Of a stretch of 64,000 nt of DNA, positions 4,950 through 37,426 are shown in pieces (position 1 is the stretch's first letter; each line of letters begins with the position of its first letter). Below the pieces are notes generated by a model. That model was not told the DNA's origin. It saw nothing but the letters and a program-made list of their open reading frames with translations, and ran no database searches. Location of the stretch: assembly GCA_903825255.1 (NCBI GenBank), contig CAIJZZ010000070.1, forward strand, positions 8,767-72,766, in the 5' to 3' direction. This stretch comes from an uncultured bacterium (lineage in GTDB: Bacteria > Patescibacteriota > Minisyncoccia > Phycocordibacterales > UBA9973). Position numbers and translations under genes: made by a program.

Positions 4950-6224
4950 ATGATGAATAAAATTAAAAGAACTTTTTTTTCACTTAAAATAAGAAATTAT
5001 AGACTTTATTTTATTGGTCAGGCTATTTCTATGTCTGGCACTTGGATTCAGACGATTGCTCAGGATTGGTTGGTCCTACAATTAACCCATTCAGGAACTC
5101 AGCTTGGTATTGTTTCCGCTTTTCAATTTTTACCAGTGCTTATCATTGGTCCATGGGGTGGGGTGATTGCTGATAGATTTTCAAAAAGAAAAATTTTATA
5201 TTTTACTCAAAGTATTTATAGTATTTTAGCTTTAATATTAGGTAGTCTTGTTTTGACCAATAGTGTTCAGATTTATGAGATTTATATTTTAGCTTTAGTG
5301 CTTGGTTTTGTTAATGTGGTTAATAGTCCGACTATCCAAACATTTATTCCGGAGATGGTAGGTAGAGAAAATTTACAAAATGCAGTTTCTTTAAATACGA
5401 CAGAAGTTAATTTAGCCAGAGCCGCCGGTCCAGCCTTGGCAGGTTTTTTGATTCTTTTTGTTGGTATTGGTTGGTGTTTTATTATTAATGGAATTTCTTA
5501 TATTGCGGTAATGACTGCTTTTTATATGATGCGAGAAAAGGAATTACATTTAACTCCAATTGTTCAAAAAAGGAAAGGGCAATTGATTGAGGGCTTGCGT
5601 TATGTTCGTTCAAATCCAATTCTTTTTAATACGATTTTAATGATGGCTATTATTGGAACTCTTTCATATGAATTTTCTGTGATACTACCATTAATCGCTC
5701 AATATACTTTTTATAGTAATGCTGGAAGTTATGCAGCACTCGTGACTGCTACAGGGCTCGGGGCAGTGCTAGGTGGATTGTTTGCTGCTAGTCGAAAAAA
5801 AATATCACCAGATATGCTTATTATTTCTGCTTTTGGTTTTGGTGTATCTTTAACTATTGCTTCTTTTATGCCGACTCTTCCACTAATGATTATTGTTATG
5901 TTTTTTTCTGGAATTTTTTCTATAAATTTTATTTCTTTAGGGAATATAACTTTGCAAACAGAAAGCAAACCAGAAATGCGGGGGAGGGTCATGGCCCTTT
6001 GGGCTGTAGCTTTTTTGGGTTCTACACCAATCGGGGCGCCGATCATAGGCTGGATTGGACAGAATATCGGGCCACGTTATGGACTTGCCTTGGGAGGTAT
6101 GGCGGCAATAGTGGCAGCGATGATTGGAAAATTTTCTATTGTTCGTAAAAATGAAATACATATTGTTTCTAGTGAAGAAAAAATATTAGAAAATGAAATA
6201 GAAAAACAAATAAGTTTGAAATAG
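4950..6224 (+). CDS. MFS transporter (EntS/MFS_3-like)
   Basis: 12-TM-like profile. The N-terminus RNYRLYFIGQAISMSGTWIQ and GPWGGVIADRFSKRK are typical of this MFS subgroup. I prefer the ATG at 4950 over the TTG at 4887. Confidence 0.85.
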   Translation: MMNKIKRTFFSLKIRNYRLYFIGQAISMSGTWIQTIAQDWLVLQLTHSGTQLGIVSAFQFLPVLIIGPWGGVIADRFSKRKILYFTQSIYSILALILGSLVLTNSVQIYEIYILALVLGFVNVVNSPTIQTFIPEMVGRENLQNAVSLNTTEVNLARAAGPALAGFLILFVGIGWCFIINGISYIAVMTAFYMMREKELHLTPIVQKRKGQLIEGLRYVRSNPILFNTILMMAIIGTLSYEFSVILPLIAQYTFYSNAGSYAALVTATGLGAVLGGLFAASRKKISPDMLIISAFGFGVSLTIASFMPTLPLMIIVMFFSGIFSINFISLGNITLQTESKPEMRGRVMALWAVAFLGSTPIGAPIIGWIGQNIGPRYGLALGGMAAIVAAMIGKFSIVRKNEIHIVSSEEKILENEIEKQISLK

Positions 6225-6240
6225 AATTTAATTAAAATCT

Positions 6241-6278
6241 TTGACAATAAGATTTCTTTGTGTTATCATAAGAGTATG
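6241..6278 (+). promoter_or_regulatory. sigma70-like promoter placed for a leaderless transcript
   Basis: TTGACA (6241-6246), 17-nt spacer, TATCAT (6264-6269), 6 nt, then ATG at 6276. Confidence 0.6.
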
Positions 6279-7148
6279 AAAGGTTTTGTTTTAAATATAT
6301 TTAAAAAGATAGATAAAAAATTAGCGCGAAAAGCGCTAAAGTTTTTTTTAGGCGGAATAACCCTTATTTTTCTAGTTTTTTTAGGCGTATTTATCGCTAT
6401 GCAATTGAATCTTACCCAAGTGGAGGGAAGTGTGGATACTAAAAGTAATTTATATAATTCAATCCAAGATGTTTTTACTCGTAAAGAACAAGTTGCTAAG
6501 ACACCAGATTGGGCCAAGACTGATGATTGGACTGTGATCAGAAGAGGTCTCACTAAAGATAAAGCATTAATAGAAAAAGCGAGCAATGTTTCTGGTGTGC
6601 CTGTCCGAACAATTCTTGCTCCTATCGTAGTAGAACAATTTCGTTATTTTGGATCAAATCGGGAACTTTTAAAAAAATTATTTTTACCACTTCAAGCTCT
6701 CGGGAACAGTGTTAAATTTTCTTATGGGATAGCTGGAGTCAAAATCGCAACCGCACAACAAATTGAAGCAAATTTAAAAGATTCTACCAGTCCATATTAT
6801 TTAGGTAGTGAATATGAACATCTTTTAGATTTCAAAACTAAAAATAGAGATAGTGAAAGAATGGCTCGTTTGACGGATGATAAAAATCATTATTATTCAT
6901 ATCTTTACACAGCTCTATTTATAAAAGAGATACAGACACAATGGGAAAATGCTGGTTACCCAATATCAAATCGTCCAGAAATATCGGCCACTATTTTTAA
7001 TTTAGGTTTTAAACATTCAGAGCCCAAAGAAAATCCAGAGGTTGGTGGATCAGATATTATAGTAAACGGTAAGACTTATACCTTCGGTGGTTTAGCTTAT
7101 CAATTTTTCTATTCAAATGAACTCGGAAAAACATTTCCAATTAATTAA
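6276..7148 (+). CDS. hypothetical membrane-anchored protein
   Basis: ATG at 6276 (MKGFVLNIF...). One TM segment (FLGGITLIFLVFLGVFIAMQL) is followed by a soluble domain with no motif I recognise. Confidence 0.55.
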   Translation: MKGFVLNIFKKIDKKLARKALKFFLGGITLIFLVFLGVFIAMQLNLTQVEGSVDTKSNLYNSIQDVFTRKEQVAKTPDWAKTDDWTVIRRGLTKDKALIEKASNVSGVPVRTILAPIVVEQFRYFGSNRELLKKLFLPLQALGNSVKFSYGIAGVKIATAQQIEANLKDSTSPYYLGSEYEHLLDFKTKNRDSERMARLTDDKNHYYSYLYTALFIKEIQTQWENAGYPISNRPEISATIFNLGFKHSEPKENPEVGGSDIIVNGKTYTFGGLAYQFFYSNELGKTFPIN

Positions 7149-26245: not shown

Positions 26246-26878
26246 ATGGATAAAGAAAAATTAGATGAATCATCAGAAAATGAAACAGAGGTGGAAGTAA
26301 AGTTCCAACCTACTGAAGAACAATTAAAAAAACTTCTAGAAGGAGCAATATTTGTGCATGAAAAAGAAAATCATGATATTTATTATGATTTTAATGACTA
26401 TAGGTTAACTAAACAAGATGTTCGGTTGCGATTTAGAAATGGATTTCCTCAATTAAAAGTGGGAAAGGAACGGGGTGTAGCTGATGAAATAAAAAATGAA
26501 GAAGATATAAAAAAATATTTTAAGACAGACTTGGATTTAAAAGATTATATTTATAAAAATATGACTGTTTTTATTGAATATAAAGTAAAAAGAAAAGAAT
26601 ATGAAAAGGAAGGATTTACGATTGATTTAGATGATTGCAATTTTGGTTATAAATTATGTGAAATCGAAAAGATAGTAAAAGACAAGAGTGAAATTAGTAA
26701 AATAAAAAAAGAGATATTAGATTTTGCTTTTAAAAATGGAATTGAATATAGGAAAATTTCTTCTAAGAGAGATGAGTATCTCAGGAAAATGAGACCGGAA
26801 GTTTATAAAGAGCTCAACGGGAAAAAGATGGAAGATGAAGAAAAATTTAAAGATCAATGGCCTGCTGGTATACATTAA
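26246..26878 (+). CDS. CYTH-domain protein
   Basis: An N-terminal EVEVKF (ExExK) motif and an overall charged beta-barrel-like pattern. Confidence 0.65.
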   Translation: MDKEKLDESSENETEVEVKFQPTEEQLKKLLEGAIFVHEKENHDIYYDFNDYRLTKQDVRLRFRNGFPQLKVGKERGVADEIKNEEDIKKYFKTDLDLKDYIYKNMTVFIEYKVKRKEYEKEGFTIDLDDCNFGYKLCEIEKIVKDKSEISKIKKEILDFAFKNGIEYRKISSKRDEYLRKMRPEVYKELNGKKMEDEEKFKDQWPAGIH

Positions 26879-26893
26879 AATTTTGAATTAATT

Positions 26894-27601
26894 ATGGTAA
26901 AAAAAATAAAGCATAAAGGTAAGTTAATAGTAATTGATGGAATAGACGGAAGTGGGAAAACCACTCAAATAAATTTATTAACAAATAAATTAAAAGCTGA
27001 TGGGTTTAAAGTTAAAATTGTTCATTTTCCTAATTATGATAATTTTTTTGGTGCTTTTATAGGGCACTGTTTAAGTGAACAATATTATAATTTTCTTAAT
27101 GTCCATCCTAAAATAGTTTCAGTTCTTTATGCAGCCGATAGGTGGGAGTCTGGAGAACAAATAAAAAAAATGCTAAAAGAAGGATATATCGTTGTTCTTG
27201 ATCGATACGTAAGTGCAAATCAAATTCATCAAGGGGGAAAAATAAAAAGTGCAAAAAAAAGAGCTAGTTTTATAAAGTGGCTTAATCAAATGGAATATGA
27301 GGTTTTTAAAATTCCAAAACCAGACTTAACTTTATATTTAAATTTACCGATTAATATTGTTTTAGAACTTTTGAAAAAACGTGAAAGTAGTAAGATAAAA
27401 AGAGAATATTTAAAGAAAGGTAAAAAGGATGTGCATGAGGCAGATGTGAATTTTTTAATTAATTCACGTAAAAGCGCCTTAAAACTCGTAAAGGAAATCC
27501 CAAATTTTATAAAAATTGAGTGCTCAAAAAAAGGCGAGATTCTATCACGAGAAAATATTCACGAAATGGTTTATGGAGAAGTTAAGAGGATTTTAAAATA
27601 A
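26894..27601 (+). CDS. tmk: thymidylate kinase
   Basis: P-loop VIDGIDGSGKTTQ and the DRY-like LDRYVSAN motif. Confidence 0.88.
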   Translation: MVKKIKHKGKLIVIDGIDGSGKTTQINLLTNKLKADGFKVKIVHFPNYDNFFGAFIGHCLSEQYYNFLNVHPKIVSVLYAADRWESGEQIKKMLKEGYIVVLDRYVSANQIHQGGKIKSAKKRASFIKWLNQMEYEVFKIPKPDLTLYLNLPINIVLELLKKRESSKIKREYLKKGKKDVHEADVNFLINSRKSALKLVKEIPNFIKIECSKKGEILSRENIHEMVYGEVKRILK

Positions 27602-28024
27602 ATGAAAATAAAAATTAAAAAATTAAAAGAGAATGCGAAGCTGCCGAAATATCATCATCCCGGGGATGTTGGGATGGATATGTATGCGATGGAGACAAAA
27701 ACTATGCAACCAGGAGAGCATTATCGTTTCTGGCATGGTTTTGCGCTAGAATTTCCCGAAGGTTATGGAGCTTTTGTGATGGACAAAAGTAGTATTTCAA
27801 AAATTGGGCTACATCAAATAGGGGGAATTTTTGATGCTGGGTATCGGGGAGAATACAATACTTTATTGGTAAATTTATCAGATAAGCCGTATACTTTTGA
27901 AGAGGGAGATAAGGTTTCACAGCTTGTGATTATGCCTGTAGTTATTGGAGAATTAGAGGAAGTTGATGAGCTAAGTGAATCAGCCCGTGGAGAAGGAATG
28001 TTTGGGAGTACAGGAAAAAAGTAA
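27602..28024 (+). CDS. dut: dUTP diphosphatase
   Basis: GDVGMDMYA, GIFDAGYRGE and the C-terminal RGEGMFGSTG are present. Confidence 0.9.
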   Translation: MKIKIKKLKENAKLPKYHHPGDVGMDMYAMETKTMQPGEHYRFWHGFALEFPEGYGAFVMDKSSISKIGLHQIGGIFDAGYRGEYNTLLVNLSDKPYTFEEGDKVSQLVIMPVVIGELEEVDELSESARGEGMFGSTGKK

Positions 28025-28025
28025 A

Positions 28026-29843
28026 ATGGAAATAAAAAAAGAACTAGAAAATTTAATAAAGAATGTTATATCTCAAATGTTTAATATTGATAAAGAATTT
28101 GTTGTCGATTTAGAACATCCAGCAGATTTAAAAAATGGAGATTACTCTTCTAATATTGCAATGATTTTCTTTTCATCTGTTAGGCAAGATACTAGAAAAA
28201 ATATTGGTTCCGACAATATAAATATTTTTGGATCCTATAATTTAGGAAACTATGATTGGAAAAATCCAAGAGAATGTGCAGAATCCATAAAAAGTGAAAT
28301 CTTGAAAGACAAACCAATTTTTTTAGAAAAAATCGAAGTGGCCGGAGCTGGTTTTATTAATTTTTATTTATCTAGAGAGTTTTTTACTGAAAGTATAAAT
28401 GAAATTTTAAAAGAAAAAGAAAATTTTGGAAAAAATAAAATATTAGATGGTAAAAAAGTGATGGTAGAATATACTCAGCCGAACCCTTTTAAACCTTTTC
28501 ATATTGGGCACCTGATGAGTAATGCGATAGGGGAATCAATATCTCGTATTGTAGAAGCAACGGGCGCAAAAACTGTCCGGGCGAATTATCAAGGTGATGT
28601 GGGCCCACATGTGGCGAAAGCTATTTATGAAATAATGAAAAATCCACTTTGTATTGAAAAGTTACACCGAGGAAATGATGGTAAAGAAAATCTTGCCTCA
28701 GCCCAAGCACATCATATTGGAGAGTGTTATGTAAAAGGCAACGATGCTTATGAGACCAACGAGACAGCTAAACGTGAAATTGATGAGATTAATAAAAAAA
28801 TATATAACCGAAGTGATGAAAAAATAAATGAGATTTATGACATAGGTAGAAAGGTAACCTTAAAAGCTTTTGAAGAAATATATAAAATATTAGGTACAAA
28901 ATTTGATGAGTATTTTTTTGAGAGTGAGATGGCAAAGATTGGACAGAAAATAGTAGAAGAAAATACCGACAAGGTTTTTGAAAAATCAGACGGTGCTATT
29001 GTTTTTCATGCCGAAAAATATGATCCGAAATTACATACTAGAGTTTTTATAAATTCTCAAGGCTTACCGACCTATGAAGCCAAGGAGCTTGGGTTAAATG
29101 AGACAAAATTTACTAAAGAAAATCCTGACCTTTCTATCGTGACTACTGCAATTGAGCAAGCGGAATATATGAAAGTAGTGCAAAAAGCATTGGAGATCAT
29201 GAAGCCTGAAATGGCTAAAAGAATGAAACATGTGACTCATGGCATGATGCGCTTAGTAACAGGCAAAATGTCTTCCAGAAAAGGCAATGTGGTGACAGGT
29301 GAATCACTACTTCACGATTCGATGGAAATTATAAGAGAAAAAATAAAAGAGCGAGAATTCACAGATGAAGAGAAAGAAAATATTGCTCGATTAGTCGGAG
29401 TGGCAGCTTTGAAGTATTCTATTTTAAAGTCCTCACTTGGTGGTGACATTATTTATGATTTTGAAAAGTCTATTTCTTTTGAAGGGGATTCTGGTCCATA
29501 TCTGCAATACACAGCCGTGCGAGCTAATTCAATTTTAATAAAAGCGAAAGAGTTTAAAATAGAAGCTGGTAAAGAAATTCCAACAGAAATTACTGAATTA
29601 GAAAAAATAATCTATCAGTTTCCGGAAGTGGTGGAACGTGCTTATTATTCTCTTGAGCCACACCATATTGCTACCTATCTAACAGAACTTACGAGTGCTT
29701 TCAATACTTTTTATGGCAACACTAAAATTCTTAATGTTGAAAATAAATATATTTCCTACCACCTAAATCTCGTAAAAGCATATTACCAAACTATGCAAAA
29801 TGGTCTCTGGCTTTTAGGTATTCAAATTCCAGAGAAAATGTAA
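28026..29843 (+). CDS. argS: arginyl-tRNA synthetase
   Basis: NPFKPFHIGHLMSNAIG (HIGH) and MSSRKGNVV (KMSK-like). I prefer the ATG at 28026 (MEIKKELENL), immediately after the dut stop. Confidence 0.92.
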   Translation: MEIKKELENLIKNVISQMFNIDKEFVVDLEHPADLKNGDYSSNIAMIFFSSVRQDTRKNIGSDNINIFGSYNLGNYDWKNPRECAESIKSEILKDKPIFLEKIEVAGAGFINFYLSREFFTESINEILKEKENFGKNKILDGKKVMVEYTQPNPFKPFHIGHLMSNAIGESISRIVEATGAKTVRANYQGDVGPHVAKAIYEIMKNPLCIEKLHRGNDGKENLASAQAHHIGECYVKGNDAYETNETAKREIDEINKKIYNRSDEKINEIYDIGRKVTLKAFEEIYKILGTKFDEYFFESEMAKIGQKIVEENTDKVFEKSDGAIVFHAEKYDPKLHTRVFINSQGLPTYEAKELGLNETKFTKENPDLSIVTTAIEQAEYMKVVQKALEIMKPEMAKRMKHVTHGMMRLVTGKMSSRKGNVVTGESLLHDSMEIIREKIKEREFTDEEKENIARLVGVAALKYSILKSSLGGDIIYDFEKSISFEGDSGPYLQYTAVRANSILIKAKEFKIEAGKEIPTEITELEKIIYQFPEVVERAYYSLEPHHIATYLTELTSAFNTFYGNTKILNVENKYISYHLNLVKAYYQTMQNGLWLLGIQIPEKM

Positions 29844-30085: not shown

Positions 30086-31834
30086 ATGGAATTAAAAACA
30101 CCCAAATTTGATAGTGCGATAGAAAAAGTTCTAGAAACACTTGTTCCACATACAAGGGAATGTAGGTGGCTGGGCGTGCATGAGCATTGTGAAGGAAAAT
30201 TTAAAATCGAGGAGGAGGATATTAAATTTTTAAAGAAATTTAAAGTGCCACCGCCAAATTATTGTCCGACATGCAGAAGAATGCGTCGTCTTCCGCATAT
30301 GAATATGTCTCGACTTTTTAAACGCAAATGTGATGTTCCAGGACATAATGAAATGATGATTTCAATTTTATCAGAAGAATGTCCATTTCCTGTTTATGAT
30401 TATAAATATTTTATTGATGATGAATTTGATGCTTTTTCTTTTGGTATGGAATATAAGAATGGGAATAGTCCGATGGAAACACTTTTTTCTCTGCGTAATA
30501 AATTTCCAATGCCATCTTTCTTAAATCGTGACCCATCTTCAGTAAATAGTGACTATTCAAACGGTGGACGGAACGTTAAAAATGGTTATTATGTTTTTGG
30601 TTGTTACACAGCAGAGGATGTTTGGTATTCTAGCTTAATAAATAAAAGTCGTAATGTTATGGATTCTGTTGCCTTAAATCATTCAGAATTTGGGTATGAA
30701 AGTATTGCCTCAGATCATATATATAAATCTTCCTTTGTCTATTTTTCTACTAATTGTATAGATAGTATATTTTTATTTGATTGTCGTAATTGTCAGAACT
30801 GTTTTGGTTGTATAAATTTACGTAATGCAAATTATTATATTTTTAATGAAAAATTTTCAAAAGAAGGTTATGAAGAGTTTATTAATTCTATTTATCCACT
30901 TTCTTTAGAAAAACTTAACTCTTTTAAAGAAAGGTTTTGGAATCTTGTAAAAAGTTTACCAGCGAATGGGACTAGGAATGTTTTAGTTAATAATGTTTCT
31001 GGGGTAAATTTAAGAAATTCTAAAAATTTATTTGATACTGTAAACGCAGATAATTCAGAAAATATTAGACATGCTGATGGGGCTCTTTCTCATAATGATT
31101 CCATGGATTTTCTTTTTTCTGGTGGGCATTCAAGTTTACTTTATATGACCACTAATATCGGTTCACAGTCTAGTAGAGTAAAGTTTTCTGTGTCTTCAAA
31201 ATTTTGTACTGATTCTGAATTTATCTTTAATTCAAAGAATTTGAACAATTGCTTTATGTGTTTTGGTTTACAAAATAAATCATATTGTATTTTAAATAAA
31301 CAATATTCTGAAGAAGAATATTATAAAATTGTTGATGAAATAAAAACTGAAATGCTCAGGAGGGAAGAATACGGAGACGGACTAGGAATAGAATTTTCTG
31401 CTCAAGCCTACAATTTTTCTCTAGGACAAATTTCTTATCCTTTAAGTAGTGAAGAAATAATAAAACTTGGTGGATACGTTGCAAGAGAACCTGAAACAAA
31501 TGTTGGAAATACTCCAACTCTTAATTATTCTGACTTACCTAAAACAATTAACGAAATATCTAATGATATTTTAAATGAAGCTATTTTTTGTGAAGAGAGT
31601 GGTAGACCGTTTAGAATAGTAATTTCTGAACTTGAATTTTATCGAAGAATGAATTTACCATTACCGAATATACATCCATCATTGCGTATGGAGAAAAGAC
31701 TTAGTTTTATGAAGGATGGGAAAAAATATAAGGCTATCTGTGCTAAATGTAAAAAAGATATTGAAACCATTTATGATCCAGTTGAAAAATTTTTATTATA
31801 TTGTGAAAAATGTTACCAGCAGGAAGTTGCTTAG
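30086..31834 (+). CDS. Cys-rich protein with internal duplication and terminal zinc-ribbon-like motifs
   Basis: CPTCRRMRRL lies near the N-terminus and CAKCKK...CEKC at the C-terminus. Two modules end in CRNCQNCFGCINLRNANYYIFNEKFSKEGY and LNNCFMCFGLQNKSYCILNKQYSEEEY. Confidence 0.6.
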   Translation: MELKTPKFDSAIEKVLETLVPHTRECRWLGVHEHCEGKFKIEEEDIKFLKKFKVPPPNYCPTCRRMRRLPHMNMSRLFKRKCDVPGHNEMMISILSEECPFPVYDYKYFIDDEFDAFSFGMEYKNGNSPMETLFSLRNKFPMPSFLNRDPSSVNSDYSNGGRNVKNGYYVFGCYTAEDVWYSSLINKSRNVMDSVALNHSEFGYESIASDHIYKSSFVYFSTNCIDSIFLFDCRNCQNCFGCINLRNANYYIFNEKFSKEGYEEFINSIYPLSLEKLNSFKERFWNLVKSLPANGTRNVLVNNVSGVNLRNSKNLFDTVNADNSENIRHADGALSHNDSMDFLFSGGHSSLLYMTTNIGSQSSRVKFSVSSKFCTDSEFIFNSKNLNNCFMCFGLQNKSYCILNKQYSEEEYYKIVDEIKTEMLRREEYGDGLGIEFSAQAYNFSLGQISYPLSSEEIIKLGGYVAREPETNVGNTPTLNYSDLPKTINEISNDILNEAIFCEESGRPFRIVISELEFYRRMNLPLPNIHPSLRMEKRLSFMKDGKKYKAICAKCKKDIETIYDPVEKFLLYCEKCYQQEVA

Positions 31835-32079: not shown

Positions 32080-35000
32080 ATGGAGGATCAAAATAAAAAA
32101 TCAGAAAGTGCCTTGCGCGAAGAAGCGGTTTTAAAATTCTGGAAAGAACAGAAAGTTTTTGAGAGTTCTTTAGCAAAAGAGTCGCCAAAGGGTGAGTATG
32201 TTTTTTATGAAGGTCCTCCGACCGCGAACGGTAAGCCTGGTATTCACCACTTGGAAGCTAGAGCTTTTAAAGATGCCATCCCACGTTACAAAACAATGTG
32301 CGGATATCATGTACGTCGAAAAGGAGGTTGGGACACACATGGTTTGCCAGTAGAGCTACAGGTAGAAAAAGAATTAGGGTTAAAATCTAAAAAAGAAATT
32401 GAAGAATACGGTATCGCAAAATTTAATCAAAAGTGTAAAGAGAGTGTTTGGACTTATGTAGACCTTTGGGAGAAATTTACAGAGAGAATAGGGTATTGGG
32501 TAGATCAAGAAAATCCATATGTAACATATCATAATGATTATATTGAATCTGTTTGGAATGTAATTAAAGAAACGAATAAACAAAATTTACTTTATAAAGA
32601 TTATAAGGTGGTACCTTGGTGTCCACGTTGTGGTACGACACTTTCTTCTCACGAGCTTGCGCAAGGGTATGAAGTGGTGAAAGATTTGTCAGTTACTGCG
32701 AAGTTTAAAATTAAAGCCTCGTCCAGTACTTCTGCTCGGGTCCTCGGTCTGGGGCCAGACCACTCGCAGAAGCACATGGACTCGGCTAATGCCTATATAC
32801 TTGCTTGGACAACGACACCTTGGACTTTGCCTGGTAATGTTGCACTTGCTGTCGGGGAAGATATTATTTATGTAAAAATAAAAAAAGATGATGAAATTTT
32901 AATTCTTGCAAAAGCAAGGCTTTCGCAAATAGAAGGTGAATATGAAATTCAAGAGGAATTAAAAGGTAAAGATTTGATCGGCTTAGAATATGAACCATTG
33001 TATCCATTTTTGAAAGATAATATTTCTGAAAAAGAAAAACCAAAATTAGAAAAAGCTTTTCAGGTGCATAAGGCTGGTTTTGTGACGACGGAAGATGGTA
33101 CTGGGGTAGTGCATACAGCTGTGATGTATGGACAGGATGACTTTATTTTAGGTAATGAAGTTGGCTTACCGAAACATCATCTTGTGGGTCTCGATGGAAA
33201 GTTTTTAAAAGATACTGGCTTTTTAGAAGGCAGGTTTGTACGGGATGAAGAGGTAGCAGTAGATATTATTAAAGATTTAGCAAGTCGCGGGCTTTTATTT
33301 AAGAAAGAAAAATATGAGCACTCATATCCACATTGTTGGCGTTGTCACACAGCGCTCATTTATTATGCGCGAGATTCTTGGTATATAAAAATGACTGCAC
33401 TGCGAGATAAAATGGTGGCAGAAAATGAAGGCATAAATTGGGAGCCAGAATATATCAAAGAAGGGCGTTTTGGCGAGTGGCTTCGAGAAATAAAGGACTG
33501 GGCGATTTCTCGAGAGCGATATTGGGGTACACCCTTACCTGTGTGGACTTGTGAAAAGTGTCACCAGAATGAAGTAGTTGGTAGTATTGCCGATCTAAAA
33601 GCAAAAATAAAAAAGTCTGGGAATAATTATTTTGCTATGCGCCACGGTGAGGCAGATAATAATTTAAGTGATTTATATTATAAAGATCCTCATCATACAG
33701 CTAAATTAACAGAAAAAGGAAAAGCTCAAGTTTTAGAGAGTGCTAAAAATTTTAAAGAAAAAATTGATATAGTTATCGCGTCTCCTTTTGAAAGAACTAA
33801 AGAAACTTCTAAGATTATTTGTGAACAAATAAATTTTCCTATAGAAAAAATAATTTACGATGAAAGAATTCAAGAATGGGAAATTAGTTCAAATTTTGAG
33901 GGGAAAGGAAGGGCAACTTTTAAACAGTATTATGAAAAAGATTATTTAGATAATCCGACCGAAGTATTACCAGACGGAGAAAGTTTTACCGAGCTTATAA
34001 AAAGAGTTGGTAGTTTTATTTATGATTTAGAAAATAAATATTCAGGTAAAAATATTTTAATTGTTGGGCATGCAGGAGTCGGTGATGCATTAGGCTTTGT
34101 AATAAATGGGCTAACCCCTGATTCTTTTTCGAGTAAAAATGACCCATTTAATCCACTTCAAAATGCTGAAATTAAAAATTTTGATTTCATTCCACTTCCA
34201 CATAATGAAAATTATGAACTTGATTTACACAAACCATATATTGATGAAGTGGAGTTAGTTTGTGACTGCGGAGGGAAATTAGTCAGAGCGAAAGAAGTCA
34301 TGGATGTGTGGCTCGATTCTGGTACGATGCCTTTTTCGCAAGATCATTATCCCTTCAATGGGGAGATTCAATATCCTGCTGATTTTATTTCTGAAGCGAT
34401 AGATCAGACACGTGGTTGGTTTTATACTTTACACGCCGTTGGAGCTTTGATGGGACGGGGAAAAGCTTATAAAAATGTAATTTGCTTAGGACTTCTACTT
34501 GATGCGAAGGGTAAGAAGATGTCTAAATCTGTTGGAAATATCGTGGACCCTTGGGAGATGATTGAGAAGTACGGAGTAGATACTTTGCGCTTTTGGATGT
34601 ATTCAGTGAATCAACCAGGGGAATCAAAACTTTTTGATGAAAAAACTGTTTTAGAATTACATCGTCAGATTTTTGGTTTGCTCTATAATGTGCTCGCATT
34701 TTATGAATTATACCGTGATCCACAATTAGAAGTTCTAGAATATAAAAAACCAGAAAATATTTTAGACCAATGGATAGTCGCTAAATTAGACGAACTTATT
34801 AAACTCTGCACTCTAAAAATAGAAGATTATAAATTATTGGAGCCAGCTCGAGCTATTAAAGATTTTATTGGGGATCTTTCGACTTGGTATTTACGTAGAT
34901 CTCGAGAGAGAATAAAAGAAGGAGATATTGAAGCCAAACAAACTTTATATTTTATTCTAAAAACTTTAGCGAAAATTATGGCACCGTTTGCGCCTTTTTC

Positions 35001-35583
35001 GGCGGAAGATATTTGGCAGAAATTGAAGAATGAAAATGACATAGAAAGTGTGCATTTAGAAAGTTGGCCTACCTTCGCTCTCGCTACGGCGGGCGAGGCC
35101 CAAAATATTTTAGAGAATATGGATCAAGTTAGAAAGATTGTTTCTCTGGGACTAGAAGCTCGACAGAAAGCGGGGATAAAAGTACGTCAACCGCTACAGA
35201 AATTAGAAGTTGCAAACCTATCATTAAGAGCAGAATTTTTAGAAATTATTAAAGATGAATTGAATATAAAAGAAGTGACAGTAAATAAGAAATTAGAAGC
35301 AGAAGTATTTTTAGATACAGAAATTTCTGAAGAATTGAAGATAGAGGGGCAATATCGCGAGTTCGTGCGAGCTATTCAAGATATGCGTAAAAAAGCTGGG
35401 CTAACACCCTCTGATGTTATTATACTTTCTGTTGAAACTGGCGAGGAAGGTAGAAAAATAATTGAAAAATTTGAAACTGAAATTAAAAAAACAGTCCTTG
35501 CCTCAAAAATAGAATTTTCTCCTAATGATGGGGATACTGTAAAAGTTGATGAATTGATTTTCAAAATACTCATTCAAAAATAA
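32080..35583 (+). CDS. ileS: isoleucyl-tRNA synthetase (type 2) carrying an internal histidine-phosphatase domain and two short GC-rich inserts
   Basis: PPTANGKPGIHHLE (HIGH), WTTTPWTLPGN, WISRERYWGTPLP and KMSKSVGN are present. The protein is 1167 aa because of insertions. Confidence 0.95.
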   Translation: MEDQNKKSESALREEAVLKFWKEQKVFESSLAKESPKGEYVFYEGPPTANGKPGIHHLEARAFKDAIPRYKTMCGYHVRRKGGWDTHGLPVELQVEKELGLKSKKEIEEYGIAKFNQKCKESVWTYVDLWEKFTERIGYWVDQENPYVTYHNDYIESVWNVIKETNKQNLLYKDYKVVPWCPRCGTTLSSHELAQGYEVVKDLSVTAKFKIKASSSTSARVLGLGPDHSQKHMDSANAYILAWTTTPWTLPGNVALAVGEDIIYVKIKKDDEILILAKARLSQIEGEYEIQEELKGKDLIGLEYEPLYPFLKDNISEKEKPKLEKAFQVHKAGFVTTEDGTGVVHTAVMYGQDDFILGNEVGLPKHHLVGLDGKFLKDTGFLEGRFVRDEEVAVDIIKDLASRGLLFKKEKYEHSYPHCWRCHTALIYYARDSWYIKMTALRDKMVAENEGINWEPEYIKEGRFGEWLREIKDWAISRERYWGTPLPVWTCEKCHQNEVVGSIADLKAKIKKSGNNYFAMRHGEADNNLSDLYYKDPHHTAKLTEKGKAQVLESAKNFKEKIDIVIASPFERTKETSKIICEQINFPIEKIIYDERIQEWEISSNFEGKGRATFKQYYEKDYLDNPTEVLPDGESFTELIKRVGSFIYDLENKYSGKNILIVGHAGVGDALGFVINGLTPDSFSSKNDPFNPLQNAEIKNFDFIPLPHNENYELDLHKPYIDEVELVCDCGGKLVRAKEVMDVWLDSGTMPFSQDHYPFNGEIQYPADFISEAIDQTRGWFYTLHAVGALMGRGKAYKNVICLGLLLDAKGKKMSKSVGNIVDPWEMIEKYGVDTLRFWMYSVNQPGESKLFDEKTVLELHRQIFGLLYNVLAFYELYRDPQLEVLEYKKPENILDQWIVAKLDELIKLCTLKIEDYKLLEPARAIKDFIGDLSTWYLRRSRERIKEGDIEAKQTLYFILKTLAKIMAPFAPFSAEDIWQKLKNENDIESVHLESWPTFALATAGEAQNILENMDQVRKIVSLGLEARQKAGIKVRQPLQKLEVANLSLRAEFLEIIKDELNIKEVTVNKKLEAEVFLDTEISEELKIEGQYREFVRAIQDMRKKAGLTPSDVIILSVETGEEGRKIIEKFETEIKKTVLASKIEFSPNDGDTVKVDELIFKILIQK
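32728..32773 (+). repeat. family A GC-capped hairpin element, copy A3 (in frame inside ileS)
   Basis: ACTTCTGCTCGGGTCCTCGGTCTGGGGCCAGACCACTCGCAGAAGC. The arms are CTTCTGC/GCAGAAG and the inner stem is GGTCTGG/CCAGACC. It encodes ...TSARVLGLGPDHSQKH... Confidence 0.75.
35066..35101 (+). repeat. family B GC-rich element, copy B1 (in frame inside ileS)
   Basis: GGCCTACCTTCGCTCTCGCTACGGCGGGCGAGGCCC shares CCTTCGC..GCTACGG..CGGGCG with 58417-58451. It encodes PTFALATAGEAQ. Confidence 0.6.
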
Positions 35584-35593
35584 TTAAAAAAAA

Positions 35594-35611
35594 TGTTAAA
35601 ATAAAGATATG
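35594..35611 (+). promoter_or_regulatory. extended -10 promoter placed for a leaderless transcript
   Basis: TGtTAAAAT (35594-35602), then 6 nt, then ATG at 35609. Confidence 0.5.
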
Positions 35612-36193
35612 AAAAAAGTATTTATTGTGCATGGTTTTGGTGGTATACCGAATGCGGGCTGGATTCCATGGTTGATGGAAGAATTAGCTAAAAAGGGAGT
35701 ATATACTTGTGCTTTACCGATGCCTCAATCTAAAAAGCCAGTGGTTTCAAAGTGGGTAGAAGAAATCGCTCACGCAATAAATAATGCACCAGAAGACGAA
35801 ATATATTTAGTCGGACATAGTCTGGGTGTGGCGGCTATTTTCAGATATTTTGAAAATATCCATGAGGGTAAAAAGATTTCAGGAGCGGTTTTGATGTCTG
35901 GTTTTACGAGTCCACTAGATCCAGAAAATCCAAGTAGTGTTTACAGAGAAATAGATTCTTTTACTGTACCAGGAATCGATCTTGAAAAAATAAGAAACAA
36001 AGCCTTGAAATTTGTTGTTTTTCATAGTACTAATGATCCGGTTGTACCTTTTTCCCATGCTTTGAAAATTTCTAATGCACTAGATTGTAAACTTGTGCAA
36101 GTTGAAAAAGGCGGACATTTCTTTATTTTAGCAGAGCCGATTTGTTATGAAATTCCCGAGTTGCTTGAAATTTTAAATGAAGTTTTAAAATAA
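35609..36193 (+). CDS. alpha/beta hydrolase (YdeN/RBBP9-like serine hydrolase)
   Basis: FIVHGFGG and the nucleophile elbow LVGHSLG. Its 194-aa size fits this small hydrolase family. Confidence 0.72.
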   Translation: MKKVFIVHGFGGIPNAGWIPWLMEELAKKGVYTCALPMPQSKKPVVSKWVEEIAHAINNAPEDEIYLVGHSLGVAAIFRYFENIHEGKKISGAVLMSGFTSPLDPENPSSVYREIDSFTVPGIDLEKIRNKALKFVVFHSTNDPVVPFSHALKISNALDCKLVQVEKGGHFFILAEPICYEIPELLEILNEVLK

Positions 36194-36197
36194 AGAT

Positions 36198-36845
36198 ATG
36201 AAAATTAAAAAATTAGGGCGTTGTTGTTTAATAATAGAAGAAAATGGTAAAAGGATTATGACGGATCCAGGGAAATATACGATTTCATTTCAAAATGAAG
36301 AAAAAAATATTGATTATATTTTTATAACACACGAACATACTGATCATGTTCATGTTGATTCTTTAAAAATTGTTTTAAAAAATAATCCTTATGCTGTAAT
36401 TATTACCAATGTTTCTGTTGGTAAAATTTTAGAAAAAGAAAAAATAAGATTCTCTTTAATAAAAGATAGTCAAGAAATGGTTTTGGGTGAAAATATATTA
36501 ATTGAAGGTGTCGGAAAATTACATAAACAAGTTTATCAGAGTATTCCTGCAGTAGAAAATGTTGGTTTTATTTTAAATAAAAGATTTTTTTATCCAGGAG
36601 ATGCGTTGTCTAAAATTGAAAAAAAAGTAAATATTGTTGCTTTTCCAGTTTCTGCAAGCTGGTTAAAATTAAGCGAATCAGTTGATTGGCTAAAAGAATT
36701 GGCTCCTCAAATTGCATTTCCTGTTCATGATGGAATTTTAAATGATTATGGTAAAAAAGCCTTTTTTGGCAATTGTCAAAAACTTTTACCAGACATTAAT
36801 ATTGAATTTAAAGTCTTAGAAGAAAATATTGAGGTAGAATTTTAA
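36198..36845 (+). CDS. MBL-fold metallo-hydrolase
   Basis: The THEHTDHVH (HxHxDH) motif. Confidence 0.72.
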   Translation: MKIKKLGRCCLIIEENGKRIMTDPGKYTISFQNEEKNIDYIFITHEHTDHVHVDSLKIVLKNNPYAVIITNVSVGKILEKEKIRFSLIKDSQEMVLGENILIEGVGKLHKQVYQSIPAVENVGFILNKRFFYPGDALSKIEKKVNIVAFPVSASWLKLSESVDWLKELAPQIAFPVHDGILNDYGKKAFFGNCQKLLPDINIEFKVLEENIEVEF

Positions 36846-37426
36846 TGCACCATATTTACCATACAGAAGGTTTAATATTAGGAAGCAAAGACTCTGGGGA
36901 GACAGGAAAGTATTATGCTATTTTTACTCGGGACTTGGGGATGATCAATGCCTCTGCTCAAGGTGTGCGAAAAATGTCTTCAAAGCTTCGCTACGTGCTA
37001 CAAGATTTTTCTTACATTAAACTTGACCTAGTACGAGGCAAAGATTTTTGGCGACTCACGAATGCCTCTAAAACAAATCAATTAGAAAATATTTTAAAAA
37101 GGTCAGAAGCTTTAACTGTTTTTGGAAATATTACTCGTCTTTTAAGACGCTTATTAGCTGGTGAATATCCCAATGAAGATTTATTTAAAGATGTTTTAAA
37201 TGGTTTATCTATTTTAGAAAAAGCAGACTCTAAGGAAGAATTTCAAAATATTGAAGTGATAATGGTTTTAAGGATACTTTCAAATTTAGGTTATATAAGT
37301 GGAGACGAATTATATGAAAATCTAACCAAGTCTCCATTTGAAGGAAACTTAATATTTGAAATAAGTAAAAATAGATCAAAAATATTATCTGAAATAAATA
37401 AGGCTTTAAAAGAAACACATTTATAA
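36845..37426 (+). CDS. recO: DNA repair protein RecO
   Basis: OB-fold N-terminus TEGLILGSKDSGETGKYYAIFTRDLGMINASAQGVRK. The ATG overlaps the upstream stop (TAATG). Confidence 0.78.
   Translation: MHHIYHTEGLILGSKDSGETGKYYAIFTRDLGMINASAQGVRKMSSKLRYVLQDFSYIKLDLVRGKDFWRLTNASKTNQLENILKRSEALTVFGNITRLLRRLLAGEYPNEDLFKDVLNGLSILEKADSKEEFQNIEVIMVLRILSNLGYISGDELYENLTKSPFEGNLIFEISKNRSKILSEINKALKETHL

Follow-up and report, generated by a model that had tools for sequence, protein, structure and literature searches.

A complete histidine phosphatase domain inside the isoleucyl-tRNA synthetase of a patescibacterium, with free-standing and multiply inserted relatives

What is a phosphatase domain doing in the middle of an aminoacyl-tRNA synthetase (aaRS)? 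The question is raised by ileS, located at 32080..35583 on the plus strand of a 64,000-nucleotide stretch of DNA from an uncultured, small-genome bacterium of the Patescibacteriota (assembly GCA_903825255.1, contig CAIJZZ010000070.1, positions 8,767 to 72,766), the whole of which is referred to as the window. The open reading frame (ORF) is uninterrupted and codes for 1167 amino acids (aa), predicted to form a type-2 (eukaryote-like) isoleucyl-tRNA synthetase (IleRS); an identical protein is public in NCBI/ENA (P0021). An initial annotation, made from the letters of the window, had described a complete histidine phosphatase domain at 33613-34215 within this ORF, and the ORF as well as all motifs quoted for it (FAMRHGEADNN, LTEKGKAQ, ASPFERTKET, IQEWEISSNFEGK, PDGESFTELIKRV and ILIVGHAGV) were found in the translation. 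As judged from sequence comparison, the domain is very probably an active phosphatase that is functionally coupled to IleRS. Beyond what had been noticed before, its location in the CP3 subdomain, its clade-wide spread, an operon-coupled free-standing form, and further insertions at other sites and in valyl-tRNA synthetase (ValRS) were found; these comparative data make the coupling to the synthetase much more certain.

The position of the insert was obtained by alignment with the PDB chain 8c8w, in which query residues 2-507 paired with chain residues 2-475 and the query from residue 711 onward with the chain from residue 483 onward. The normal link is therefore about 7 residues long and the extra segment amounts to about 203 residues (aa 508-710, 33601..34209, plus strand as all features below), the interval given before having been off by 12 nucleotides (nt) at the 5′ and by 6 nt at the 3′ boundary. 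Query residue 507 pairs with residue 496 of C. albicans IleRS (6ldk), i.e. within CP3, which covers residues 473-534 of that enzyme and joins CP2 to the KMSKS-bearing second half of the Rossmann fold (PMC7191050). CP3 of the Tt IleRS has a Zn motif, and the CP3 topology differs in every solved IleRS (PMC7191050). The alignments show that the insert sits at the tip of this variable subdomain of a type-2 IleRS. The CP3 zinc knuckle has its two Cys pairs on either side of the insert, the first (C491, C494) lying 5′ of it in CEKC (33550..33561) and the second (C728, C730) in CDCGG (34261-34269), within a segment (34261..34323) that runs on into DVWLDSG at the start of the Rossmann second half. The placement of the block between a WxCxxC segment and an ELDLHKPYID/CxC/DVWLDSG segment was thus confirmed by the 8c8w alignment and also by Pfam, where the tRNA-synt_1 match of the protein is split into aa 17-516 and a C-terminal part. 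The chain enters the module through KKSGNNYF (33610..33633), an entry linker followed by an N-x-Y signature before strand 1, and leaves it through NAEIKNF, the last phosphatase strand, and the exit linker PLPHNEN, re-entering IleRS at YELDLHKPYID (34162..34230), where the 8c8w alignment resumes at aa 711. The G+C content of the insert is 0.27 vs ~0.38-0.42 in the flanks, a dip that does not go beyond the values of other parts of the window.

Assignment of the block to the histidine phosphatases was borne out by the profile search, in which His_Phos_1 (PF00300) matched aa 519-683 (33634-34128) with an E value of 6.3e-26 and 91.7 bits against a gathering cut-off of 21.7; the earlier interval, translated alone, was matched at E 2e-27. 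A self-contained excursion was also predicted by AlphaFold2 (AF2): aa 506-711 modelled alone from a 42-sequence alignment gave a predicted local distance difference test score (pLDDT) of 92.9 and a predicted template modelling score (pTM) of 0.89, with a folded core at ~aa 516-701 (33625-34182) and a last predicted strand at aa 698-701. Using Foldseek, the model was matched to 4ij6, 4pz9, 1h2e and 9mmh with probability 1.00 and template modelling (TM) scores of 0.72-0.74 over 190-206 columns, CobC being matched as well, and the alpha/beta fold of the superfamily is complete in the model. The ranking agreed with that of a profile comparison against PDB sequences, in which 4ij5 came first at 3e-22, followed by CobC and PhoE; the identity to the nearest solved phosphatases is only 17-24%.

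Assignment to a functional family was then sought among the NCBIfam equivalog models. The insert scored 64-69 bits vs 162.9 for the CobC alpha-ribazole phosphatase (TIGR03162) and 46-51 bits vs 350 for the PspA phosphoserine phosphatase. The models for 2,3-bisphosphoglycerate-dependent phosphoglycerate mutase (dPGM), applied to the insert alone, gave 54 bits vs 225 (dPGM_arch), 26.5 vs 81.7 (pgm_1) and 38 vs 261 (GpmB). Matches of the insert and its relatives to the SixA model were weak and far below its cut-off, and the phosphatase half of NF005567 (RNase H/acid phosphatase) matched the insert with 58 bits, again far below the cut-off. Hallmarks of the dPGMs are the substrate motif ERHYG...K after the catalytic Glu and a C-terminal tail; here E599 is followed by EWEISSNFEGK, and the domain ends at ~aa 701 and returns to IleRS. 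As no equivalog cut-off was reached, the module is assigned to the branch-1 histidine phosphatases of the small PhoE/CobC/PspA kind and not to the bona fide phosphoglycerate mutases (PGM). Profile, fold and active-site comparison together show the insert to be a complete, self-folding branch-1 histidine phosphatase which has kept its catalytic residues.

The residues by which the superfamily is recognised are all present (R521, H522, G523, R572, E599 and H664). The catalytic Arg521 and the nucleophile His522 lie in RHGE (33640..33651), the second phosphate-binding Arg572 (and Thr576) in ERTKET (33790..33807), the general acid Glu599 in IQEWE (33868..33882) and the second catalytic His664 in VGHAG (34063..34077). 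Among 62 species-level orthologues, R521, H522, R572, E634, R642 and H664 were found in 62/62 and E599 and N528 in 61/62. Counted over all architectures, the Arg-His pair is present in 108 of 109 domain copies, the general acid is E or D in all other copies but one, and the full set of five catalytic residues (R, H, R, E or D, H) is retained in 107 of 109. The mean pairwise identity among the 62 orthologues is 43% for the insert vs 62% for the rest of the protein, at an insert length of 195-206 aa. This pattern is the signature of a domain that appears to be catalytically constrained and to have a freely evolving surface.

A catalytically dead excursion tolerated in CP3, be it an inert spacer or a decaying remnant, would go along with the faster evolution of the insert and with its low G+C content. 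It is strongly disfavoured, and we regard it as very improbable, by the invariance of R521, H522, R572 and H664 across 62 divergent species (with N528 and E599 each missing once), by their retention in nearly all copies elsewhere, by the tight insert length and by the confidently predicted fold. The earlier statement that the catalytic Arg-His, second Arg, Glu and second His are intact and that the domain does not look like a decayed remnant therefore stands, now with purifying selection over the 62 orthologues behind it.

How widely the architecture occurs was examined at the level of both proteins and loci. A homologue search with the insert plus flanks yielded 20 mostly fragmentary proteins, and of the full-length relatives obtained with the whole protein as query, the 120 closest (64-77% identity) all contain PF00300. 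A locus scan over one genome per GTDB species, with a three-sequence alignment as query, gave at least 599 pattern matches, and 565 loci were confirmed by tblastn. The best 80 of these all span the insert and both flanks at 41-69% identity, with a single intact ORF in nearly all; 79 are titled as Candidate Phyla Radiation (CPR)/Patescibacteria or as metagenome-assembled genomes (MAGs) of a 'bacterium' and one as Nitrospira sp., among them Nomurabacteria, Campbellbacteria, Zambryskiibacteria, 'Paceibacterota', the 2013 RAAC4_OD1_1 genome and a complete Campbellbacteria chromosome. The comparison of orthologues for presence and absence thus revealed a clade-wide insert in Patescibacteria and an insert-less ileS in sister lineages. 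The architecture has been public in hundreds of genomes since 2013-2015, with no label beyond 'isoleucine--tRNA ligase' or 'class I tRNA ligase family protein'.

The same data bear on the possibility of an artefact or a recent mobile insertion (a chimera, an intein or a transposon-borne cassette), for which the local G+C dip at the insert is the sole supporting point. The junctions at ~33.6/34.2 kb, for which an assembly chimera had initially been considered, recur in at least 80 independent species genomes and in many metagenomes of different projects, and the reading frame is continuous. No Hint/intein, homing-endonuclease or transposase domain was detected in the ileS protein with Pfam, and no terminal or target-site repeats were present at the insert boundaries 33601/34209, so that the idea of a mobile cassette was rejected. 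This explanation is refuted by the recurrence across assemblies and is left with next to no probability.

In two of the fetched loci an otherwise intact ileS is broken by an in-frame stop (TAG at nt 5728-5730 of L025, TAA at nt 5575-5577 of L045), which could mean that the sequence is wrong at this point, that the gene is a pseudogene or that the stop is read through. Both ileS and tuf are split into several ORFs in L001, as if by frameshift errors.

The same phosphatase subfamily also exists as a separate protein. In a profile search of 1.84 billion cluster representatives, 262 matches were obtained at E<=1e-30; the best 150 of these were classified as embedded in a class I synthetase (107), free-standing proteins of ~190-210 aa (40) or other or longer proteins without an IleRS flank (3), two of the latter having two phosphatase domains each. 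Free-standing proteins and insert share the N-terminal 'N-x-Y-F-x-(L/M)-RHGE' and the C-terminal 'GELRKLN/NAEIKxF'. Within the entry segment, S513, G514, N515 and Y517 are invariant in the alignments of insert-bearing relatives; the N-x-Y signature is invariant in 25 ileS-adjacent proteins, is found in the inserts with N in 42/44 and Y in 38/44, and is unconserved in the other aaRS-embedded copies. With a mean isoelectric point (pI) of 9.35, the free-standing proteins are strongly basic, which would hint at contact with RNA; the fused forms need not be basic, the window insert being acidic, and these AT-rich genomes are Lys-rich overall.

The ileS-adjacent free-standing phosphatases (189-195 aa) are encoded immediately upstream of an ileS without insert, with a spacer of -11 to +24 nt between the phosphatase stop and the start of ileS in 25 of 26 such loci, ATGA overlaps included. 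In L082/L083 and L086 the gene order reads argS, phosphatase, ileS (931-955 aa, no insert), recO. The order argS...ileS...recO is common to the window, with argS at 27975..29843 as the upstream and recO at 36845..37426 as the downstream anchor, and to the insert-bearing loci, and in sister lineages the phosphatase gene stands between argS and ileS. Loci classified from a metagenome scan comprised ~27 with a free-standing gene just 5′ of an insert-less ileS, ~24 with the CP3 insert and ~10 with the domain elsewhere or at contig ends. The adjacent clade has named members among the Staskawiczbacteria and the 'Parcubacteria group' and contains 2114 proteins at E<=1e-10. No free-standing copy was found within the ~6 kb flanks examined at insert-bearing loci. 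Two neighbour-joining (NJ) trees, rough and without support values, were built, one for the phosphatase domain and one for IleRS with the insert columns removed; in both the two states interleave, suggesting several switches between them. That phosphatase and synthetase are fused in some lineages and translationally coupled in others, and that the two forms do not occur together in the flanks examined, is a classic mark of partners that are linked in function and probably also physically. The two forms, a separate cistron translationally coupled to the ileS start and a domain inside IleRS, show a dedicated, ancient partnership of one phosphatase subfamily with this synthetase in Parcubacteria/CPR.

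The coupling to a synthetase recurs at further sites. Two tandem copies occupy CP3 in the IleRS proteins P0208, P0234 (Candidatus Peribacteria) and P0275; in P0180 a phosphatase copy follows the DxWFxSG motif, and in P0180, P0200, P0217 and P0249 a copy lies in an initial loop of the anticodon-binding domain, near aa 880-893 of the window protein. The domain is also present in ValRS, with one copy after EPMISPQWF and one at the CP3 equivalent in P0273 (1538 aa; L084 703-5319), and with four domains in the fragment P0141, i.e. one after EPMISPQWF and three in tandem at the CP3 equivalent. Two IleRS proteins of the window type (P0117, P0130) additionally bear a C-terminal HD phosphohydrolase of ~200 aa (PF01966), for which only weak similarity to HDIG and HD_3 and no specific family match was obtained, so that neither a YqeK-like nor a SAH-like identity can be called. 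With up to four copies per protein and at least 4 sites beyond CP3, this is a recurrent partnership between the phosphatase and class Ia synthetases.

Several of these proteins and loci have further peculiarities. ORFs of 1334-1392 aa in L010, L011, L012, L069 and L079 are extended similarly to P0117 and P0130. A PemK toxin gene lies directly 5′ of valS in L084. P0239 (1066 aa, a JGI 'isoleucyl-tRNA synthetase') combines an IS200-like Y1 transposase domain in the editing region (aa 340-461) with His_Phos at aa 680-854 and a C-terminal GNAT domain.

The recurrence has to be set against the main rival explanation, according to which the module is a metabolic enzyme riding along, i.e. a missing PGM or another housekeeping phosphatase (e.g. 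a phosphoserine phosphatase) that was linked to ileS for co-expression and later swallowed into a loop. PGM has been reported absent in several shallow Parcubacteria clades, possibly being too divergent to be detected (PMC7304191), and the structurally variable, peripheral nature of CP3 (PMC7191050) would suit such an event. The best NCBIfam match of the free-standing relative is the short archaeal dPGM model (102 bits vs a cut-off of 225), with CobC and PspA next; a member goes by 'putative phosphoglycerate mutase' in one source, the related representative P0159 bears K15634/gpmB, and the structures closest to the module are small-molecule phosphatases or mutases. On the other side, the dPGM, CobC and PspA models all remain below half to two-thirds of their cut-offs, the catalytic Glu stands in EWEIS instead of being followed by ERHYG, and the domain lacks the C-terminal tail. 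Co-expression alone would also leave unexplained the insertions at at least 5 IleRS/ValRS sites, the tandem copies numbering up to four, the complementary fused and adjacent forms and the 107 of 150 representatives that are embedded. A metabolic passenger is accordingly considered unlikely, and an active phosphatase working together with the synthetase remains the reading that we prefer.

The NCBIfam score of the host enzyme for TIGR00392 ileS is 852 bits against a cut-off of 621, and its nearest PDB chains are 8c8w/8c8u (P. megaterium IleRS2), followed by 1ile (T. thermophilus), IleRS1 (1ffy) being far weaker; equivalog score and IleRS2-like structures identify the host protein as a type-2 IleRS. 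Residues 1-507 (32080..33600), aligned with 8c8w residues 2-475, comprise the first half of the Rossmann fold, the CP core, the CP1 editing domain, CP2 and the first half of CP3 (domain names after PMC7191050). The CP1 editing motifs WTTTPWTLP (32806-32832) and GTGVVHTA (33097-33120) are present, as is the KMSKS loop (aa 813-817, 34516..34530), and the class I signature HXGH occurs in the swapped GXHH form as GIHH (aa 54-57, 32239..32250). With TIGR00392 above its cut-off, the editing motifs and KMSKS, the host is a functional IleRS in sequence terms. Among 62 relatives the class I motif reads GIHH in 34, HYGH in 9, ALHH in 6 and VLHT in 3. GXHH is a documented IleRS2 variant that is tied to mupirocin hyper-resistance (PMC10485003); the exception models for the acquired mupirocin-resistance enzymes MupA/MupB gave 755-778 bits against a cut-off of 1900. 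The four CP3 cysteines are all-or-none in the relatives (CCCC in 42/62, no Cys in 20/62), and the phosphatase insert is kept in both groups.

As to what such a phosphatase would do, the module is proposed to be an active phosphomonoesterase that offers the mobile acceptor end of the tRNA one more site of hydrolysis. A 2′- or 3′-terminal phosphate that stems from the action of an RNase or toxin, or from (pyro)phosphorylation, would be taken off there, so that A76 could again be charged with an amino acid, in analogy to the CP1 editing domain, which is also a Rossmann insertion and treats the same tRNA end. Selection would then favour a phosphatase held beside IleRS or ValRS, the attachment point being flexible. 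The substrate of a histidine phosphatase has to present a terminal phosphoryl group. The class Ia synthetases have in common the tRNA 3′ end, which is already processed by the inserted CP1 hydrolase, and it is from this, together with three weak hints, that a phosphate at the acceptor end is inferred. The hints, independent of one another, point to a ribose 2′/3′-phosphate; they are the HD domain co-fused in a subset of IleRS (a minority observation), a 2H/LigT-type gene beside the phosphatase in two loci of a sister free-standing clade (L135, L139) and the existence of toxins with a matching target. Toxins that (pyro)phosphorylate specific tRNA CCA ends, and so block aminoacylation in a manner specific for the tRNA species, have been described (PMC11559606 and others).

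Several points weigh against this proposal. To our knowledge, no histidine phosphatase acts on RNA ends, and the nearest structures are small-molecule phosphatases with a capped active site, which would fit a metabolite better than a macromolecular end. Some copies lie a long way from the acceptor end, in a loop of the anticodon-binding domain, so that a precise geometry does not seem to be required. The HD and 2H associations are in the minority, the HD domain has no specific family, and the 2H neighbour belongs to the sister clade and not to the IleRS-linked one. The proposal gives no reason why the need for such a function should be limited to IleRS and ValRS. The reported lack of PGM in several shallow Parcubacteria clades offers a mundane alternative (PMC7304191). 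In a full-length AF2 model built from 49 close sequences, the insert reached a pLDDT of 83-95, with the Rossmann fold below 50, a mean pLDDT of 70.5 and a pTM of 0.39, which is too poor to place the phosphatase site relative to the synthetic and editing sites. No tRNA genes or Rfam families were found in the 64-kb window, PADLOC gave no meaningful match to a defence system, and with PHROGs only an uncharacterised phage His_Phos family was matched.

With these points taken into account, a phosphate at the 2′/3′ acceptor end is put forward only tentatively as the substrate. The initial annotation had named, as speculation, the removal of phosphate from tRNA ends and action on a phosphorylated inhibitor or nucleotide; to the first of these the comparative data lend modest, indirect support. 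The joint claim of an active, coupled phosphatase acting on the tRNA end is evenly balanced. The widest version, in which CPR class Ia synthetases have repeatedly recruited a third catalytic station for the acceptor end, an on-board end-healing activity that licenses tRNA-Ile and tRNA-Val, is somewhat more doubtful than the substrate assignment on its own.

The capped active site, resembling those of PhoE, CobC, PspA and GpgP, leads to another explanation, namely a small-molecule phosphatase in the service of the synthetase. It would act on 2′/3′-NMP, AMP, PPi or Ap4A-type products or, as on-target immunity, on a phosphorylated or phosphoramidate antibiotic that mimics Ile-AMP. The GXHH motif of the host IleRS, through its link to mupirocin hyper-resistance (PMC10485003), suggests antibiotic pressure on the target, and related IleRS proteins also bear GNAT or HD domains. 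Fusions of His_Phos to enzymes of nucleotides or nucleic acids exist, as in the NCBIfam models for RNase H/acid phosphatase and MutT1, and the 2H phosphoesterase neighbour would be compatible with a pathway from 2′,3′-cNMP via NMP to the nucleoside. Yet no phosphorylated IleRS inhibitor is known as a candidate, with a diffusible substrate neither tethering nor several tandem copies would have much point, and models of defence systems gave no matches. The adenylate itself is no substrate, because of the requirement for a terminal phosphoryl group. On balance a small-molecule substrate appears improbable, though worth keeping in view beside the proposed tRNA end.

A protein substrate was considered as well, i.e. 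an inhibitory phosphate removed from IleRS or ValRS (e.g. near KMSKS, placed there by a Hip-like kinase) or from a partner protein. The superfamily does contain protein phosphatases such as PGAM5, Sts-1 and SixA, the last with weak matches here, and HipA and HipT kinases target class I synthetases. CP3 moreover adjoins the second half of the Rossmann fold with its KMSKS loop (PMC7191050). However, SixA is matched far below its cut-off, the capped architecture of ~200 aa is not of the minimal, open SixA type, and no kinase was found in the conserved neighbourhood. Dephosphorylation of a protein is therefore thought quite improbable, and the acceptor end of the tRNA stays the substrate that we favour, with the reserve stated above.

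Known systems resemble the module in part. With the small branch-1 phosphatases (PspA/iPSP1 of Hydrogenobacter, 4ij5; PhoE/YhfR, 1h2e; CobC, 6nru/6e4b; GpgP Rv2419c, 4pz9; the riboflavin-pathway HFP, 9mmh) it has in common the fold, the size of ~200 aa and the succession RHG...R...E...H; unlike these free-standing metabolic proteins, it is embedded in or operon-coupled to an aaRS and has its own N-x-Y signature before strand 1. The CP1 editing domain of IleRS, ValRS and LeuRS is likewise a hydrolytic Rossmann insertion of the same enzymes, a likeness in possible mode and not in ancestry, since CP1 is universal and hydrolyses misacylated esters, whereas the insert is CPR-restricted, sits at CP3, has an unrelated fold and would cleave a phosphomonoester via phospho-His. 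A precedent for an extra enzyme domain on IleRS is given by NF040702 ('isoleucine--tRNA ligase, N-acetyltransferase domain-containing'), against which the window protein scored 309 bits vs a cut-off of 1999 and had no GNAT match in Pfam; the GNAT domain of P0239 is terminal, not internal. Fusion of a small histidine phosphatase to an enzyme of nucleic acids or nucleotides is also seen in NF005567 (Rv2228c type) and in MutT1 of Mycobacterium (Nudix + His_Phos), but these are end-to-end fusions with other partner enzymes, their own role being unclear, and not internal insertions. The HD domain of the bacterial CCA-adding enzyme is a tRNA 3′-end repair activity. Small alarmone hydrolase antitoxins counter the pyrophosphorylation of CCA ends by toxSAS (PMC11559606 and others). 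Both would restore a chargeable 3′-OH, as is proposed here, and HD is also found on a subset of these IleRS; the HD of the CCA enzyme is metal-dependent, in contrast to the metal-independent His_Phos module of another superfamily.

An aaRS with an internal PGAM-like module had initially been taken to be undescribed, and full-text literature searches were consistent with this: an internal histidine phosphatase in a synthetase, the operon-coupled split form and the recurrence at multiple sites were not found in the literature, broad recent IleRS papers included. Three independent comparative lines, i.e. fusion, translationally coupled partners and repeated insertion or duplication, tie a domain with intact catalytic residues and an unrelated chemistry to IleRS and in places to ValRS over a large part of the CPR, and this pattern predicts a real, selectable function. 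There thus appears to be a so far undescribed link between the charging of tRNA and the removal of phosphate. Few enzymes have been studied as thoroughly as the aaRS, each of whose accessory domains (for editing, tRNA binding and signalling) has revealed new biology. If the module repairs or detoxifies tRNA ends, it would constitute a new step of tRNA quality control, an RNA-repair or anti-toxin activity embedded in an aaRS and the first RNA-end substrate of the superfamily; if it were the 'missing' PGM, metabolic reconstructions of Parcubacteria that score PGM as absent would have to be corrected. Under either reading the module is invisible in present annotation, and as one protein with an excisable domain and a natural split version it provides a compact system.

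The surroundings of ileS in the window are as follows. Just 5′ of argS, at 26246-28024, lies a nucleotide-metabolism cluster made up of a CYTH-domain protein, a thymidylate kinase/dNK-like protein and a dUTPase. The interval between argS and ileS, the place of the free-standing phosphatase gene in sister lineages, is filled by an ORF of 582 aa (30086-31834) that is Cys-rich, with many CxxC pairs and a weak treble-clef zinc-finger match, and has homologues in 9 fetched loci. Between ileS and recO, at 35609-36845, an alpha/beta hydrolase (Ser_hydrolase, PF06821) and an MBL-fold protein are encoded; these genes occur in only 8 and 13 related loci, respectively, and are thus outside the conserved unit.

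Some free-standing relatives stand in other contexts. In L085 the phosphatase (6001-6597) has kept the downstream synteny (small ORFs, a CLIPPER-like protein and a peptidase M16) in a locus from which ileS is missing; upstream lies a defence-island-like stretch (AbiEii, NERD, MazG, an SLFN-like helicase and DUF3800). In the sister free-standing clade, L135 (4526-6455) and L139 (4173-6153) each encode a trio of the phosphatase, a hydrophobic protein of ~150-200 aa and the 2H (LigT/cyclic phosphodiesterase) protein, and the trio of L135 adjoins a defence-like island (EcoRI-type methylase, GmrSD/HNH, PD-(D/E)XK and reverse transcriptase). Distant His_Phos proteins with a C-terminal HxGH domain, cytidylyltransferase/TagD-like by eye, are encoded in L134 (4059-5045), L141 (2610-3596) and L140 (1415-2488).

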